Origin: a virus
Strand: one strand, 5' to 3'
UHGV virus genome: UHGV-0120148
Length of the DNA stretch: 10,879 nt
Shown: positions 3,967 to 10,654 of the stretch, one piece after another
Numbering within the stretch: position 1 is the stretch's first letter
Layout of the letters: every line of letters starts with the position of its first letter
Made by a program: the position numbers and the translations under genes
The notes under the pieces: generated by a model
The model's input: the letters and a program-made list of their open reading frames with translations, nothing else
What the model was told of the DNA's origin: nothing
Database searches by the model: none

Positions 3967-4609
3967 TGGCAGCAAATACCGAAATATTTGGGTAGCTGGC
4001 GATCTGCACGGATGCTACACGAACCTGATGAACAAACTGGATACGATTGGATTCGACAACAAAAAAGACCTGCTTATCTCGGTGGGCGATTTGGTTGATC
4101 GTGGTGCAGAGAACGTTGAATGCCTGGAATTAATCACATTCCCCTGGTTCAGAGCTGTACGTGGAAACCATGAGCAAATGATGATTGATGGCTTATCAGA
4201 GCGTGGAAACGTTAATCACTGGCTGCTTAATGGCGGTGGCTGGTTCTTTAATCTCGATTACGACAAAGAAATTCTGGCTAAAGCTCTTGCCCATAAAGCA
4301 GATGAACTTCCGTTAATCATCGAACTGGTGAGCAAAGATAAAAAATATGTCATCTGCCACGCCGATTATCCTTGTGACGAATACGAGTTTGGAAAGCCAG
4401 TTGATCATCAGCAGGTAATCTGGAACCGCGAACGAATCAGCAACTCACAAAACGGGATCGTGAAAGAAATCAAAGGCGCGGACACGTTCATCTTTGGTCA
4501 TACGCCAGCAGTGAAACCACTCAAGTTTGCCAACCAAATGTATATCGATACCGGCGCAGTGTTCTGCGGAAACCTAACATTGATTCAGGTACAGGGAGAA
4601 GGCGCATGA
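3944..4609 (+). CDS. ninI: NinI Ser/Thr protein phosphatase (221 aa)
   Basis: Metallophosphatase motifs GDLHG, GDLVDRG and GNHE; matches lambda NinI starting at [12 protein letters not shown] 3944 has RBS ggagtgaaagag; the ORF-track start at 3869 is an upstream extension overlapping ninH. Confidence 0.9.
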
Positions 4610-5229
4610 GACTCGAAAGCGTAGCTAAATTTCATTCGCCAAAAAGCCCGATGATGAGCGACTCACCACGGGCCACGGCTTCTGACTCTCTTTCCGGTAC
4701 TGATGTGATGGCTGCTATGGGGATGGCACAATCACAAGCCGGATTCGGGATGGCTGCATTTTGCGGTAAGCACGAACTCAGCCAGAACGACAAACAAAAG
4801 GCTATCAACTATCTGATGCAATTTGCACACAAGGTATCGGGGAAATACCGTGGTGTGGCAAAGCTCGAAGGAAATACTAAGGCAAAGGTACTGCAAGTGC
4901 TCGCAACATTCGCTTATGCGGATTATTGCCGTAGTGCCGCGACGCCGGGCGCAAGATGCAGAGATTGCCACGGTACAGGTCGTGCGGTTGATATAGCAAA
5001 AACAGAGCAGTGGGGGAGAGTTGTCGAGAAAGAGTGCGGAAGATGCAAAGGCGTCGGCTATTCAAGAATGCCAGCAAGCGCTGCATATCGCGCTGTAACG
5101 ATGCTAATCCCAAACCTTACTCAACCCACCTGGTCACGCACTGTTAAGCCGCTGTATGACGCTCTGGTGGTGCAATGCCACAAAGAAGAGTCAATCGCAG
5201 ACAACATTTTGAATGCGGTCACACGTTAG
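4606..5229 (+). CDS. Q: Late-gene antiterminator Q (207 aa)
   Basis: Essentially lambda Q ([31 protein letters not shown]..., zinc-binding CRDCHGTG...CGRCKGVG); ATGA overlap with the ninI stop. Confidence 0.93.
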
Positions 5230-5272
5230 CAGCATGATTGCCACGGATGGCAACATATTAACGGCATGATAT

Positions 5273-5301
5273 TGACTTTTTGAATAAAGTTGGGTAAATT
5301 T
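5273..5301 (+). promoter_or_regulatory. Late promoter PR' (-35 TTGACT, 17-bp spacer, -10 TAAATT), with the qut region immediately downstream
   Basis: ttgactttttgaataaagttgggtaaatt matches the lambda PR' region from recall; sits just downstream of Q. Confidence 0.7.
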
Positions 5302-5442
5302 GACCAAACGATGGGTTAATTCGCTCGTTGTGGTAGTGAGATGAAAAGAGGCGGCGCTTACTACCGATTCCGCCTAGTTGGTCACTTCGACGTATCGTCT
5401 GGAACTCCAACCATCGCAGGCTGAGAGGTCTGCAAATGCAAT

Positions 5443-5502
5443 CCCGAAACAGTTCGCAGGTAATAGTTAGAGCCTGCGCAACGGTTTCTGGATTTTTTAT
5501 TT
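5443..5502 (+). terminator. tR' terminator (3' end of the 6S late leader RNA)
   Basis: Long imperfect hairpin cccgaaacagttcgcagg...cctgcgcaacggtttctgg followed by attttttattt, about 190 nt downstream of the PR' start, as in lambda. Confidence 0.7.
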
Positions 5503-5574
5503 GGGTCAGTCGTATAAAGGTCATTACGGAAGGCTGTTAACCTTCTTATCGTGGTTCGAGTCCACGCTGCCCCC
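5503..5574 (+). tRNA. tRNA-like gene, anticodon GTT (Asn) by hand fold; atypical (one acceptor-stem mismatch, no encoded CCA); possibly a pseudo-tRNA
   Basis: Hand fold: acceptor gggtcag/ctgcccc (6 of 7 pairs), D-loop with GG, anticodon stem gaagg/ccttc with loop ctGTTaa, T-stem cgtgg/ccacg with T-loop ttcgagt (TTCRANY consensus). Confidence 0.4.
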
Positions 5575-5583
5575 TCCAAATAT

Positions 5584-5659
5584 GCTGGTTTAGCTCCAAT
5601 GGTAGAGCAGTCGCCTTGTAAGCGAATGGGTAGCGGTTCAAGTCCGTTAACCAGCACCA
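5584..5659 (+). tRNA. tRNA, anticodon TGT (Thr) by hand fold, with encoded CCA
   Basis: Perfect 7-bp acceptor stem gctggtt/aaccagc, D-arm gctc-caatggta-gagc, anticodon loop ctTGTaa, T-stem agcgg/ccgtt with T-loop ttcaagt, discriminator A plus CCA. Confidence 0.6.
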
Positions 5660-5777
5660 TTACTGAGCCGTAGCCACTGGCTATTCTGAATTCATCAGTG
5701 ATAGTTATGCTGCGGCCTTCTTTTTTCCCCTTCCCAATATAAGAACTACGCAATCCGTTACTGGCGGAGGCGTTGCT

Positions 5778-5993
5778 ATGAAATCAATGGACAAAATCTC
5801 AACTGGCATTGCCTACGGAACATCCGCTGGTAGTGCGGGATACTGGTTTTTACAGTGGTTGGATCAGGTCAGTCCATCACAGTGGGCTGCGATTGGGGTG
5901 CTTGGAAGCCTTGTGTTGGGTTTTCTCACCTATCTGACAAATCTGTACTTCAAAATCAGAGAAGACAGAAGAAAGGCTGCGAGAGGTGAATAA
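5778..5993 (+). CDS. S: Holin S, phage-21-type pinholin (71 aa) with dual-start motif
   Basis: [71 protein letters not shown] matches S21 from recall; Met1 and Met4 give the antiholin/holin dual start; two TMDs; RBS ggagg. Confidence 0.88.
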
Positions 5994-6490
5994 TGCCTCC
6001 ATCATTACGAAAAGCCGTTGCTGCGGCTATTGGTGGCGGGGCTATTGCTATAGCATCTGTGTTAATCACTGGCCCAAGTGGTAACGATGGTCTGGAAGGT
6101 GTGAGACATAATCCTTACAAAGACATAGTTGGTGTATGGACTGTATGTTACGGGCATACAGGAAAAGACATCATTCCCGGTAAAACGTATACCGAAGCAG
6201 AGTGCAAAGCCCTCCTGAATAAAGACCTTGCCACTGTCGCCAGACAAATTAACCCGTACATCAAAGTCGATATACCGGAAACAACGCGCGGCGCTCTTTA
6301 CTCGTTCGTCTACAACGTGGGTGCTGGCAATTTCAGAACATCGACGCTTCTTCGCAAAATCAACCAGGGCGATATCAAAGGCGCATGTGACCAGCTACGT
6401 CGCTGGACATACGCTGGCGGTAAGCAATGGAAAGGGCTGATGACTCGCCGTGAGATTGAGCGTGAAGTCTGTTTGTGGGGGCAACAATGA
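5993..6490 (+). CDS. R: SAR endolysin R (phage-21-type lysozyme, 165 aa)
   Basis: N-terminal Gly/Ala-rich signal-anchor-release domain [20 protein letters not shown] followed by a T4-lysozyme-like catalytic region; start overlaps the S stop (TAATG). Confidence 0.88.
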
Positions 6491-6951
6491 GCAGGGTAAC
6501 CGCGATTATCTCCGCTCTGGTTATCTGCATCATCGTCTGCCTGTCATGGGCTGTTAATCATTACCGTGATAACGCCATTACCTACAAAGCCCAGCGCGAC
6601 AAAAATGCCAGAGAACTGAAGCTGGCGAACGCGGCAATTACTGACATGCAGATGCGTCAGCGTGATGTTGCTGCGCTCGATGCAAAATACACGAAGGAGT
6701 TAGCTGATGCGAAAGCTGAAAATGATGCTCTGCGTGATGATGTTGCCGCTGGTCGTCGTCGGTTGCACATCAAAGCAGTCTGTCAGTCAGTGCGTGAAGC
6801 CACCACCGCCTCCGGCGTGGATAATGCAGCCTCCCCCCGACTGGCAGACACCGCTGAACGGGATTATTTCACCCTCCGGGAACGACTGGTAATGATGCAG
6901 GCCCAACTTGAAGGTGCTCAGCAATACATAACCGAGCAGTGTTTAAAGTAA
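6487..6951 (+). CDS. Rz: Rz i-spanin (154 aa)
   Basis: N-terminal TMD followed by a coiled-coil periplasmic domain; ATG 6487 overlaps the R stop (ATGA). The ORF-track start at 6475 is an upstream extension. Confidence 0.85.
6707..6892 (+). CDS. Rz1: Rz1 o-spanin lipoprotein (61 aa), embedded in Rz in the +1 frame
   Basis: Lipoprotein signal with lipobox LVVVGC, proline-rich mature part ([15 protein letters not shown]), entirely inside Rz. Confidence 0.8.
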
Positions 6952-7088
6952 AATCTTAACTACAATATGATTCATTTTGATGATTGTTTCATAAGGAACA
7001 GTGAAGTAAGATCTAAGAGGAGTTAAATTTTATACAGTATAATCATAATATTGCAGCAAGGTGGTTATAATTGAAAGAATATTTAGAT

Positions 7089-8546
7089 ATGAATACATCT
7101 CATGTAAGAGTTGTTACTCATATGTGTGGGTTCCTGGTTTGGCTCTATAGTCTTTCAATGTTGCCACCAATGGTTGTAGCATTGTTTTATAAAGAAAAAA
7201 GCCTGTTCGTTTTCTTTATAACTTTCGTTATATTTTTTTGCATTGGTGGCGGAGCGTGGTATACAACTAAGAAATCTGGCATTCAATTACGTACCCGTGA
7301 TGGGTTTATTATAATTGTAATGTTTTGGATTTTGTTTTCTGTTATTAGTGCATTCCCTTTATGGATTGACTCAGAACTTAATTTAACGTTCATTGATGCT
7401 CTGTTTGAAGGGGTTTCTGGAATAACAACAACAGGAGCAACTGTAATTGATGATGTTAGTTCATTACCTCGGGCATATTTGTACTATCGGTCACAGTTAA
7501 ATTTTATAGGTGGTTTAGGAGTTATTGTTCTGGCGGTTGCTGTATTGCCATTATTGGGTATTGGTGGTACAAAGCTTTATCAGTCAGAAATGCCGGGGCC
7601 ATTTAAGGATGACAAACTCACTCCCCGCCTGGCCGATACGTCACGGACACTGTGGATAACTTATTCTTTATTAGGTATTGCTTGTATTGTCTGTTATAGA
7701 CTTGCAGGAATGCCTTTGTTTGATGCTATTTGTCACGGGATTTCCACAGTTTCGCTTGGTGGTTTCTCAACTCATAGCGAGAGTATCGGATATTTTAATA
7801 ACTATTTGGTTGAGCTGGTGGCTGGTTCTTTTTCCCTGCTATCGGCTTTCAACTTCACTCTTTGGTATATTGTTATTAGCAGGAAAACGATAAAACCTTT
7901 AATCAGAGATATTGAACTTCGTTTCTTTCTGTTAATAGCCTTAGGGGTGATCATTGTTACCTCTTTCCAGGTCTGGCATATAGGTATGTATGACTTGCAT
8001 GGAAGTTTTATTCATTCGTTTTTTCTTGCCAGCTCCATGCTCACTGATAATGGTTTAGCTACGCAGGATTATGCAAACTGGCCCACGCACACGATAGTGT
8101 TTTTGCTGTCGTCAAGTTTCTTTGGGGGATGTATAGGTTCAACTTGTGGTGGAATTAAGTCACTTCGATTTCTTATACTTTTCAAACAAAGCAAACACGA
8201 GATAAATCAGCTTTCTCATCCCAGAGCGTTGTTGAGTGTAAATGTAGGAGGGAAGATAGTTACAGATCGTGTAATGAGGTCTGTATGGAGTTTCTTTTTT
8301 CTTTATACTCTCTTCACGGTGTTTTTTATACTGGTGTTAAATGGTATGGGATATGATTTTCTTACATCATTTGCAACAGTGGCTGCATGTATTAATAATA
8401 TGGGATTAGGTTTTGGGGCTACTGCATCGTCATTCGGAGTGCTTAATGACATTGCAAAATATTTAATGTGCATAGCTATGATTCTTGGTCGCCTTGAAAT
8501 TTATCCTGTTATTATATTGTTTTCAGGTTTTTTTTGGCGCTCCTAA
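7089..8546 (+). CDS. trkG: TrkG/TrkH-family potassium uptake membrane protein (485 aa); prophage moron
   Basis: Polytopic membrane protein matching E. coli Rac-prophage TrkG from MNTSHVRVVTHMCGFLV... Strongly AT-rich relative to the flanking phage genes. An alternative TTG start at 7071 (6 codons upstream) has a better-placed RBS (aaggtgg). Confidence 0.88.
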   Translation: MNTSHVRVVTHMCGFLVWLYSLSMLPPMVVALFYKEKSLFVFFITFVIFFCIGGGAWYTTKKSGIQLRTRDGFIIIVMFWILFSVISAFPLWIDSELNLTFIDALFEGVSGITTTGATVIDDVSSLPRAYLYYRSQLNFIGGLGVIVLAVAVLPLLGIGGTKLYQSEMPGPFKDDKLTPRLADTSRTLWITYSLLGIACIVCYRLAGMPLFDAICHGISTVSLGGFSTHSESIGYFNNYLVELVAGSFSLLSAFNFTLWYIVISRKTIKPLIRDIELRFFLLIALGVIIVTSFQVWHIGMYDLHGSFIHSFFLASSMLTDNGLATQDYANWPTHTIVFLLSSSFFGGCIGSTCGGIKSLRFLILFKQSKHEINQLSHPRALLSVNVGGKIVTDRVMRSVWSFFFLYTLFTVFFILVLNGMGYDFLTSFATVAACINNMGLGFGATASSFGVLNDIAKYLMCIAMILGRLEIYPVIILFSGFFWRS

Positions 8547-8683: not shown

Positions 8684-9115
8684 ATGAGCGAGAAATTAAA
8701 GATAGTCTATCGCCCATTACAAGAATTGTCACCGTATGCGCACAACGCCAGGACGCACAGTACTGAGCAGGTGGCACAACTGGTAGAAAGTATTAAGCAA
8801 TTCGGCTGGACTAATCCGGTGCTGATTGACGAAAAGGGCGAAATTATTGCGGGTCACGGTCGTGTTATGGCGGCTGAAATGCTCAAAATGGATTCTGTTC
8901 CGGTCATTGTTCTGTCTGGCCTGACGGATGAGCAGAAAAAGGCGTACCGCCTGGCAGATAATCGCCTACCGATGAATGCTGGCTGGGATGAAGATCTGTT
9001 GCGGATGGAGCTGTCGGACCTAATCAATGCTGATTTTGATGTCTCCCTGACAGGCTTCGGCCCGACAGAAATTGATGAACTGTTGACGGATGTTTTGCCC
9101 GGTATCGGGCCTTAA
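8684..9115 (+). CDS. ParB-like nuclease domain protein (143 aa), probably a truncated N-terminal part of a larger protein
   Basis: ParB/Srx-like N-terminal domain features (IIAGHGRVMAA, RLADN) and the ...SLTGFGPTEIDELL linker that in phage ParB-methyltransferase fusions precedes a methylase domain; here the ORF stops about 15 codons later, 3 nt from the convergent tfa stop. Confidence 0.65.
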   Translation: MSEKLKIVYRPLQELSPYAHNARTHSTEQVAQLVESIKQFGWTNPVLIDEKGEIIAGHGRVMAAEMLKMDSVPVIVLSGLTDEQKKAYRLADNRLPMNAGWDEDLLRMELSDLINADFDVSLTGFGPTEIDELLTDVLPGIGP

Positions 9116-9118
9116 TTT

Positions 9119-9646
9119 TTACTCTGGTTTTTGTGGCCATTCAGGATTTGCCGTATCCACACGGCTGACCAGAACACTGTAGCGTTCCCATGCTTCCAGT
9201 CGTGTGCGTTCCTCGTCTGTTGCCATATTCAGCCTGACAGCGCGCTCCAGCGGCAAAATTACGGATTCAGCTTCGGAAAGCAAAGCTGCCTTCTGTAATT
9301 CCGCCTGTTGTTGCTGTTCATCTGCCGTATAAATCCGTTTAACCACAGCTCCGTCCCTAAACATCCACTTACTGGAATCATCAGCGCAGCGGTTGGCTGT
9401 AATATCTGGAACCTCAACGACGCTATAACCTTCAGGGTTAAGCGTGGAGGCATCTTTGGTGATGGCGACAATAATATTATTTGCATCGTAAACAATCTTT
9501 ATTGTGTCTGGCTGAAAGTTTTTCACTTCCTCATACCAGTTTTTTCCGTCTTCGGACCATAACCAGATAACATCAAAATTCTTTGTTAGCTGATATTGTT
9601 CTTTTGTTTTTGGATTTCCAGACTTAATATTTTTTAAATGCTGCAT
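9119..9646 (-). CDS. tfa: Tail fibre assembly protein (Tfa / Mu U' type, 175 aa)
   Basis: C-terminal conserved Tfa motif ...[25 protein letters not shown]...; located immediately downstream of the tail-fibre variable segment on the same strand. Confidence 0.8.
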
Positions 9647-9649
9647 AAA

Positions 9650-10654
9650 TTACACCTGTACGACGTTATACCATGTGCCATTGATGTATTTTTGTATTGG
9701 TCTGAATACTGCCGGATCATCGCCATCAACTGCACCGATAATGCCAAGCCCCGTAATTGCATGACCTGATTTCTCATACATCACGCCTTTTTGCATAGTC
9801 TGAACAACACGTGTACCAAGTCGGACATCTCTCACATAACGTGAGTCAAAATTACCATAATTGCCGGGAATAACTTGCGCACCGCAAAGCCAGTTGCCAT
9901 TGTTGTCCATGTACGCCTGACCATCGGTGCCATTGGCTGTCCTTGAGTTATTAATCATGTAGATGCCAAATTGCTTATTCCCCAGTCCACCAATCATAAA
10001 TTTGCGATCAGCGTGGTCCTGACGAAGTAATGCCTGCGCACCATCGGTGGATACCGCATTGCGTCCCAAAATAACATTCTGGTCACGCATATGAATCCAC
10101 ATGCCGGTACTACTGTTAATTGCAAAACGGTTTGCAAATATATCCCCTGTAACATCAAGACCATGCCCCATGCTTATCCGACCAGTTCTGAGATTAAGCG
10201 TAAAGGGGCGTAGTGGCCCTATATCACCATTTTCTCCCTCATTCTCTCGTGTAGGGATGATATGCAGGCATTCTTCAGAACGACGAAAAATAGCACCAAA
10301 AGATGAATTAAATATCCTCAGTGCATTGACTGTCGATATTTTTACTTCACTGCTGAAAAGGGCTTTAACAAGGACAGACAAAGCATCCCATTTAAGAGTC
10401 ATCAGGTCTTTTGTTGTGGTGCTCTGGCGGCTTCTCCATTTGAAATATTCATTGCCGTTGTCGCCTGTTTCAAACCACATGTATGAATCAGTGTCGCTGT
10501 CGGCATTATTTTTAAAACCAATCTTTGCCCAGTCAGTATTTCTAATCCAGGCAAGGATTGAGTCGTTTTCAAAAGTAAGCCCACCGGACAAGGTATCGCC
10601 ATTCTTTTGCACGGCGTTCCTGGCCCTGTTTACCGTTTCCTGTAAACCGAGGTT
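9650..10654 (-). CDS. Tail fibre protein, variable C-terminal segment (Sv'-type) lacking the constant N-terminal part; silent cassette
   Basis: Open frame on the minus strand runs from inside the gix-like site (encoding NLGLQETVNRARNA, as in Mu/P1/e14 tail-fibre junctions) to the stop at 9650. No start codon or N-terminal constant domain is present; the ORF-track start at 10612 is an internal GTG. Gly/Asn-rich, fibre-like composition. Confidence 0.7.
   Translation of the reverse strand, partial: NLGLQETVNRARNAVQKNGDTLSGGLTFENDSILAWIRNTDWAKIGFKNNADSDTDSYMWFETGDNGNEYFKWRSRQSTTTKDLMTLKWDALSVLVKALFSSEVKISTVNALRIFNSSFGAIFRRSEECLHIIPTRENEGENGDIGPLRPFTLNLRTGRISMGHGLDVTGDIFANRFAINSSTGMWIHMRDQNVILGRNAVSTDGAQALLRQDHADRKFMIGGLGNKQFGIYMINNSRTANGTDGQAYMDNNGNWLCGAQVIPGNYGNFDSRYVRDVRLGTRVVQTMQKGVMYEKSGHAITGLGIIGAVDGDDPAVFRPIQKYINGTWYNVVQV

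Follow-up and report, generated by a model that had tools for sequence, protein, structure and literature searches.

The two tRNA genes that lie directly downstream of tR' in this viral DNA belong to a known element: they are the tRNA-Asn(GUU)/tRNA-Thr(UGU) module of the phage 21 type, which resides in the late leader. The window (by which we mean the whole 10,879-nt stretch of UHGV virus genome UHGV-0120148 that was analysed) thus holds a feature already known and adds no new kind of element. What purpose would the pair serve? We consider the following account likely as a whole: a phage-21-type module stands behind a lambda-type Q, PR', and tR', is read through under the control of Q, and provides a tRNA-Thr that would stand in for a host tRNA destroyed by nucleases; tRNA-Asn would play the same part for its own host counterpart, and the window's copy of tRNA-Asn would be a weakened or dead allele.

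A sequence-only reading of this DNA had placed two tRNA-like genes directly after tR', had folded them by hand to the anticodons GTT (Asn) and TGT (Thr), and had called for a tRNA predictor to be run on them. ARAGORN, applied to the whole 10.9-kb window, called exactly two tRNA genes, both on the plus strand, with those anticodons and at identical coordinates (Table 1). The Rfam model RF00005 agrees, as both genes scored above its gathering score of 29. Their 7-nt anticodon loops, CUGUUAA in tRNA-Asn and CUUGUAA in tRNA-Thr, have the U33 and purine 37 of elongator tRNAs. In tRNA-Thr, seven acceptor pairs (GCUGGUU/AACCAGC) are followed by A73 and a CCA in register. The window's tRNA-Asn departs from this canonical arrangement of seven pairs, discriminator, and in-register CCA: it has U4.C69 and ends in C-UCCA, and a second mismatch, U13.U22, is located in the D-stem. 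The acceptor mismatch and the missing encoded CCA that had been reported for the first tRNA thus correspond to U4.C69 and to a CCA that is out of register. Two minus-strand ORFs (5258-5524 and 5382-5753) that run across the tRNAs and the leader were taken as spurious.

Table 1. Features of the window from the Q gene onward, with the evidence for each
Feature	Position	Strand	Evidence or context
Q antiterminator gene, lambda type	4606-5229	+	Pfam Antiterm PF03589, E 1e-57; 206/207 identical to lambda Q
PR' late promoter (TTGACT-17-TAAATT)	5272-5300	+	Only promoter-like site in 5100-5900; near-identical to lambda
tR' terminator hairpin and U-run, end of 6S-like leader	5441-5502	+	dG -25.8 kcal/mol, z -4.3
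tRNA-Asn(GUU), atypical copy (body 5503-5574, trailing TCCA 5575-5578)	5503-5578	+	ARAGORN; Rfam 52.6 bits, E 3e-9
tRNA-Thr(UGU), canonical, ACCA encoded	5584-5659	+	ARAGORN; Rfam 61.5 bits, E 1e-11
Hairpin and U-run, second terminator-like element	5667-5727	+	dG -24.8 kcal/mol, z -5.1
S21-type class II holin (pinholin)	5778-5993	+	Pfam Phage_holin_2_1 'Bacteriophage P21 holin S', E 9e-36
Endolysin	5993-6490	+	Pfam Phage_lysozyme, E 3e-48
Rz spanin	6475-6951	+	Pfam Phage_lysis, E 4e-53
TrkH/trkG-like potassium transporter gene	7071-8546		Directly after lysis cassette, as in Rac prophage
ParB_N (ynaK-like) gene	8684-9115		Follows trkG-like gene, as in Rac prophage
Tail-fibre assembly gene (Caudo_TAP) and tail-fibre C-terminal part (Gp34_trimer)	9119-10612	-

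The pair is annotated at the same place in phage 21 (between the pR' terminator and S21), Sf6, SfI, SPN9CC, Kapi1, mEp506, and others; the Sf6 record notes that its tRNAs are 'similar to phage 21', and papers on SfI and phage L discuss them. Over positions 5495-5665, the window is 97.1-97.7% identical to phage 21, Sf6, SfI, and HK446, where we had asked for at least 95% identity to the phage 21 genes, and it places the pair directly 3' of a Q-controlled late terminator and 5' of a lysis cassette. In all, 92 phage records carry the module, as do 875 of the 5426 complete E. coli genomes; for phages like 21 and P22, its annotation is textbook knowledge. The sequence-only reading therefore described the pair correctly, and the search in relatives that it had proposed recovered the same tRNAs in phage 21, Sf6, SfI, and HK446; what it had not recognised is that these phages share a well-known module.

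A pattern scan of IMG/VR yielded 120 further loci. Together with five fetched phage or prophage loci and the window, they make up a survey of 126 copies, about 125 of which were called by ARAGORN. Thr(tgt) comes next after Asn in 107 of the called copies; the others have Gly(tcc) or Phe-Thr-Arg(tct) in that place, or no further tRNA. The spacer between Asn and Thr is 5 nt in 96 of the 107 measurable loci, and in the window it is 5 nt plus the shifted register. Apart from about seven of the 126 copies, Asn always lies directly after a terminator, be it of the p21 type, the lambda type, or some other. These exceptions are Mulock-type Klebsiella-phage loci, in which the annotated terminator is approximately 90 nt upstream of Asn.

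Several variants of the module were encountered in this survey. Klebsiella phage Mulock (L007, 1501-1820) and seven IMG/VR loci have the versions Asn-Phe(GAA)-Thr-Arg(UCU) and Asn-Gly(UCC); the Arg(tct) gene found in some of the Klebsiella-phage versions is absent from the window. Gly(UCC) is among the top targets of the Old nuclease (preprint 10.64898/2026.07.10.737580). The tRNA-Thr encoded at the IMG/VR locus L123 is a chimera that matches the phage gene in its 5' half and is identical to host thrU from the anticodon stem on; a glyT-like Gly(tcc) is next in line. From its sequence, the chimera looks like the product of recombination between a phage tRNA and the host thrU operon. In two other IMG/VR loci (L048 and L051), the Asn gene runs, from the T-loop on, into the 3' end of a Gly(UCC)-type tRNA (…GGTTCGATTCCCGCTACCCGCTCCA), and the ARAGORN call is lost. 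Finally, the second gene of Salmonella phage L (L006, 1589-1660), ST64T, PS3, and ST160 is a diverged copy annotated as tRNA-Leu(TAA). ARAGORN made no call for this gene of P22-like phages, which has probably arisen from the Thr gene by degeneration.

Within the window, homology changes from lambda to phage 21 at the U-run of tR'. Upstream, the Q gene is preceded by genes for a DnaB-type helicase, NinB, NinF, NinG, NinH, and a NinI-type phosphatase, and positions 5231-5500 are near-identical to the PR', 6S leader, and tR' of lambda; the tR' sequences align as far as GGATTTTTTAT. tRNA-Asn starts 3 nt past the U-run. From there, the two tRNAs replace about 190 nt of lambda sequence that is unrelated to them, in keeping with the earlier statement that lambda has no tRNAs at this position. 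The hairpin that follows the pair is common to the window, lambda (44946-45000), and phage 21, and the first late gene beyond it encodes the S21-type pinholin, an order that phage 21 shares. Substitutions at 5478-5479 and 5489 of tR' (CGGG to CTGG, plus a GC/AT change) are private to the window with respect to lambda and the K71-77 prophage; the hairpin that carries them still folds, at -25.8 kcal/mol.

How would such a pair be expressed? The sequence-only reading had named two options, Q antitermination and a local promoter. In a promoter scan of positions 5100-5900, PR' was the only site found, and nothing promoter-like separates it from the holin gene; a promoter dedicated to the tRNAs is thus without support, and we set it aside. 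This result and the position of Asn directly after a terminator in nearly all relatives favor the first option, and Q-dependent read-through is predicted as the better of the two. RNA polymerase from PR' would halt at tR' unless modified by Q. After the action of Q, the late mRNA would contain the tRNAs in its first part, and the tRNA-processing enzymes of the host would excise them. The pair is also bracketed by two terminator-like elements, tR' and the hairpin at 5667-5727. Because of this arrangement, leaky read-through at tR' could give a transcript of the tRNAs only, with the lysis genes silent.

The region beyond the lysis genes bears on the state of the prophage. Past the lysis cassette, the window is devoid of terminase, portal, and head genes, and the layout after Rz resembles that of Rac; together, these features suggest a cryptic prophage, probably one without virion genes as judged from the gene content. 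The tail-fibre segment at 9119-10612, opposite in strand to all of the other phage genes, may be a Pin-type segment that has inverted, or else what a deletion has left behind. The order essD-rrrD-rzpD-trkG is common to 678 E. coli genomes. Rac-like essD-rrrD-trkG prophages were considered as carriers of the tRNAs and rejected: in the one representative inspected, that of strain DETEC-S565, the Q region is of another kind and these tRNAs are absent.

The function of the module can be approached most directly through tRNA-Thr. The window's copy is identical at 76 of 76 positions to those of phage 21 and HK446, and its identity to tRNA-Thr21 was established against the phage 21 genome record (OL657228). 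It carries G1-C72, C2-G71, G35, and U36, which are ThrRS elements, and the acceptor pairs of its family covary (GCUGGUU, GCCGGCU, and GCUGUUU, each with a matching 3' strand). Govande et al. 2025 (PMC12445682) demonstrated that the P2 Old protein, a Toprim nuclease, attacks the only tRNA-Thr(UGU) of the host, from which it excises the anticodon arm. According to the same study, 'tRNA-Thr21' of phage 21 resists cleavage and protects cells from P2-OLD, and its resistance was ascribed to a shorter anticodon stem and to C28U/G42A. Strong anti-OLD rescue by the tRNA-Thr of HK446 has likewise been described (preprint 10.64898/2026.07.10.737580). In both reports, the phage tRNA replaces the cleaved host tRNA-ThrU, and plasmid-borne host thrU gives no rescue.

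Indeed, the window's tRNA-Thr has a G27.A43 mismatch that shortens the anticodon stem, U28-A42, and no CNG motifs; its anticodon-stem triplets are UCG/CGA vs. CUG/CAG in host thrU. With G39 and G41, it reads UAAGCG where the host tRNA reads UAAUCA. The same anticodon arm is found in 16 of 21 distinct Thr variants (95 of 107 copies), and three more variants are one base off. In the window's phage ORFs, ACA accounts for 17.4 per 1000 codons and for 34% of Thr codons; for SfI, an ACA usage of 17.3 was reported, vs. 7.1 in its host (SfI paper). With such heavy use of ACA, the phage genes of the window depend strongly on a single Thr(UGU) decoder. The exact sequence of the window's tRNA-Thr has been demonstrated elsewhere to be a nuclease-resistant stand-in for thrU, the sole host tRNA-Thr(UGU), which is destroyed by P2 Old and also by the AriB nuclease of PARIS. 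It would thereby keep ACA codons, which are 2-3 times commoner in phage genes than in those of the host, readable.

Would tRNA-Asn serve a similar purpose? Its peculiar acceptor stem has to be understood first, as the gene had been described earlier as 'decaying or non-canonical'. Among 19 distinct full-length Asn sequences, the cloverleaf is backed by covariation: six pairs change on both sides, and the covarying pairs include 5-68, 6-67, 7-66, 28-42, and 29-41, while columns 30-57 were fixed by the search pattern and are without covariation information. The covariation score was 0.137, vs. 0.043 in shuffled alignments; none of 500 shuffles reached the observed value. Correspondingly, 90% of cells were paired, vs. 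35-54% with slid partners. Of the 19 sequences, 17 have no pair at position 4:69 and all have the unpaired U13.U22, and the norm of the family is U4.U69 followed by G-CCA; a 4-nt variable loop is a further trait of its shape. Since the 4:69 mismatch is kept while adjacent pairs covary, it is best regarded as a selected trait. Decay was thus rejected as the cause of the acceptor mismatch, which is non-canonical and conserved in the family. As this case shows, imperfection by itself does not make a phage tRNA a pseudogene, which counsels caution with automated pseudo-tRNA calls.

By its sequence, the Asn scaffold is a conserved phage-specific lineage. The closest match to it is the tRNA-Asn of Mosigvirus, a T-even phage (60 of 78 positions identical). 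Among host tRNAs, it is nearer to glyT (54/78, with the D-arm in common) than to asnT (48/78). The usual 3' end, CTGTCCC-G-CCA, with G73 and an encoded CCA, was observed in 110 of the approximately 125 called copies: 82 copies have the most frequent full sequence, and 28 more share its 3' end. G73 is kept in about 118 of the 126 copies.

The window's Asn gene equals that of phage 21 apart from the 3' acceptor end, which reads CTGCCCCC-T-CCA instead of the usual sequence. Three derived changes are present: U69C, G73U, and one extra C, at 5570. The extra C puts the CCA out of register by one base, and position 73 is therefore U or C, depending on the register. The 4-C/U73 form, i.e., the one lacking the extra C, was encountered only in three E. 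coli genomes and two IMG/VR loci, and the 5-C form of the window in none of 5426 E. coli genomes and none of the 120 IMG/VR loci. Reportedly, G73 is an identity element for E. coli AsnRS. Given the loss of G73 and the shifted CCA, we argue that the window's copy is probably impaired, i.e., a weakened or dead allele. Decay is thus a probable description of the rare or private changes at the 3' end, even though it does not describe the mismatch at 4:69.

The nearest relative of the window in this region is the K71-77 prophage, with five differences in 501 nt; three of these affect the stem region of tR', and another is the extra C. Its Asn 3' end, CTGCCCC-T-CCA, encodes the CCA in register. In that prophage, terminase and portal genes lie downstream of the lysis cassette, and the U73 change is therefore not limited to cryptic prophages. 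The proximity of this relative raises the question of whether the extra C could be a homopolymer error of sequencing or assembly, such that the true allele would be of the K71-77 type with its CCA in register. The lengthening of the run from four to five C's, seen in no other of more than 5500 sequences searched, is what such an error would look like, and only five positions separate the two sequences over 501 nt. However, the other four differences in these ~500 nt are ordinary substitutions, indicating that the divergence is real, and we find an error somewhat improbable.

Alternatively, the window's tRNA-Asn might still be functional, with the extra C widening 4:69 into a 1x2 internal loop and U73 and the CCA remaining in register. 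Such a fold can be drawn: G1-3 would pair with CCC, U4 would face CC, and C5-G, A6-U, and G7-C would follow, then U-CCA. Position 4:69 is unpaired throughout the family in any case, and the U73/4-C allele does persist in five other places (three E. coli genomes, two IMG/VR contigs), in one of them on a different terminator background, of the p21 type. On the other hand, the reported identity element G73 is so widely kept in the family, the minimum-energy fold of the window's tRNA-Asn favors the register without CCA, and the 5-C form is unique. A functional tRNA in the window is therefore unlikely in our estimation, and an impaired allele remains the preferred reading.

The case for tRNA-Asn as a second nuclease-escape tRNA begins with the nucleases themselves. 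AriB of PARIS cleaves host Lys(UUU), Thr(UGU), and Asn(GUU) tRNAs at U36-A-A-U39-C40|N41; changes of U39 and A41 block its cleavage of tRNA-Lys, and the T5 variants of the Lys, Thr, and Asn tRNAs together neutralise PARIS (Belukhina et al. 2025, PMC12409363). One of two studies of Old found that it also cleaves Asn(GUU), more slowly. Nucleases of the Old/PARIS Toprim family are carried by P2 phages and P4 satellites, and lambda is restricted by both Old and PARIS. Both anticodons of the window thus match host tRNAs that are cleaved, Thr(UGU) by Old and Thr(UGU) and Asn(GUU) by AriB. Put differently, the pair comprises two of the three AriB targets, and both were cut by Old in one of the two studies.

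The lambdoid tRNA-Asn is altered at every position that the papers on Old and AriB single out. The window's copy reads UAACCU vs. UAAUCC in the host tRNA; it has C39 and U41 where the host tRNA has U39, its anticodon-stem triplets are AAG/CUU vs. CGG/CCG in host asnT, and the CNG motifs used by Old are absent. On this basis, we tentatively propose that the lambdoid tRNA-Asn would be a second nuclease-escape tRNA, paired with tRNA-Thr because their host counterparts are co-targets of Old and PARIS. It would do for host tRNA-Asn(GUU), a secondary target of the same nucleases, what tRNA-Thr does for thrU. If this proposal is true, then C39, U41, the lack of CNG motifs, U4.U69, and the glyT-like D-arm are the resistance determinants of tRNA-Asn; the module is a compact, Q-timed anti-defence cassette of temperate phages; and the window's allele was caught decaying once the prophage had become cryptic.

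There are several arguments against this role for tRNA-Asn, and they account for our caution. A resistant tRNA-Lys(UUU) is needed to bypass PARIS B185 (PMC12409363), and the module is without one; Asn and Thr alone would not defeat that system. Moreover, Asn(GUU) is a slow or secondary substrate of Old and AriB and falls outside the top Old targets (preprint 10.64898/2026.07.10.737580). [quoted passage not shown] In addition, resistance of tRNA-ThrU to Old required CNG loss and stem shortening together (PMC12445682), and the anticodon stem of tRNA-Asn is a full 5 bp. Our literature search found no experiment on nuclease resistance or rescue by a phage-21-type tRNA-Asn, and resistance of this tRNA to Old or AriB is the one lead that emerges from the present analysis. 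Another nuclease was considered as well. Colicin E5, which cuts Q34-U35 of Asn, Tyr, His, and Asp tRNAs, was rejected as the relevant enzyme: the phage Asn loop, CUGUUAA, is the same as the host loop and so offers no escape.

The classical view of the pair, that of the SfI and phage L papers, is codon supplementation, according to which the tRNAs do nothing but raise the supply of decoders for codons overused by phage late genes. The ACA usage given above for the window and for SfI is in line with it, as is the major capsid gene of phage L, in which 24 of 25 Asn codons are AAC (phage L paper). The standing of thrU as the sole UGU tRNA of E. coli also fits. For Asn, the case is weak: E. coli has four asn tRNA genes (asnT, asnU, asnV, and asnW), and the supply of Asn tRNA is therefore not obviously limiting. 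The SfI authors, moreover, saw no bias among Asn codons and regarded the role of tRNA-Asn as unclear. Supplementation also leaves unexplained why the differences from host tRNAs fall exactly at the anticodon-stem positions that Old and AriB read, and why the phage tRNA rescues where plasmid-borne host thrU fails. As the only purpose of the pair, supplementation seems doubtful to us, although it is compatible with nuclease escape and the two are not mutually exclusive. That the tRNAs make up for a host tRNA gene broken by prophage integration, as raised for HK446 by the authors of the 2026 preprint (10.64898/2026.07.10.737580) and in keeping with the many relatives that integrate into tRNA genes such as thrW, is highly improbable: the genes are in the late leader behind a terminator and not beside int/att, thrW is rebuilt on integration, and UGU and GUU differ from the usual attachment tRNAs (thrW CGU, argW).

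The combination of these two anticodons is known from other coliphages. Asn(GUU) and Thr(UGU) stand side by side, and in the same order, in P7 (L008, 1425-1578) and N4 (L009, 637-886). The P1/P7 pair and the Asn-Ser-Thr-Pro cluster of N4 resemble the window in having both anticodons, with Asn before Thr, in phages unrelated to it. Unlike the window's genes, they are built on different scaffolds, which score 74-75 bits in Rfam. P7 differs further in that its Thr keeps CUG/CAG and its Asn keeps UAAUCA, and in its expression, which is early and controlled by C1.

Stx phages of the 933W type carry ileZ-argN-argO in the stretch of late leader that separates Q/PR' from the late genes, the same location as that of the present pair. 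Those tRNAs have other anticodons and sequences, and none of the three is present here. The sequence-only reading had already set the anticodons of the window apart from that set, and membership in it (Ile CAU/lysidine and Arg of the UCU/UCG type) was rejected, as gtt and tgt alone were found by ARAGORN.

T5 offers a functional parallel. As in the window, the anticodons of its tRNAs match host targets of Toprim nucleases, and the tRNAs are substituted at positions 39 and 41, beside the cut: the T5 sequences are UAAGUU for Asn and UAAGCA for Thr, vs. UAACCU and UAAGCG in the window. The sequences, however, are unrelated. T5 encodes the full set, Lys included, in an array of about 24 tRNAs with promoters of its own, whereas the lambdoid module has no tRNA-Lys and no promoter of its own.

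The closest counterparts of the window are phage 21 and HK446. Phage 21 (OL657228) shares the Asn-Thr order, the location immediately past the late terminator and ahead of the lysis genes, the conserved hairpin downstream, and the S21 pinholin; in contrast to the lambda-type Q, PR', and tR' of the window, it has Q21 with its QBE and its own terminator. HK446 has been described as encoding a single tRNA (preprint 10.64898/2026.07.10.737580). In its genome (L134, 309-464), ARAGORN calls both tRNA-Asn and tRNA-Thr, and the GenBank record annotates neither. HK446 (NC_019714) resembles the window in that Asn and Thr come after a lambda-like Q, PR', and tR', and it is 96.7% identical over window positions 5300-5721; it differs in its canonical G73-CCA allele of tRNA-Asn and in its lambda-type S holin.
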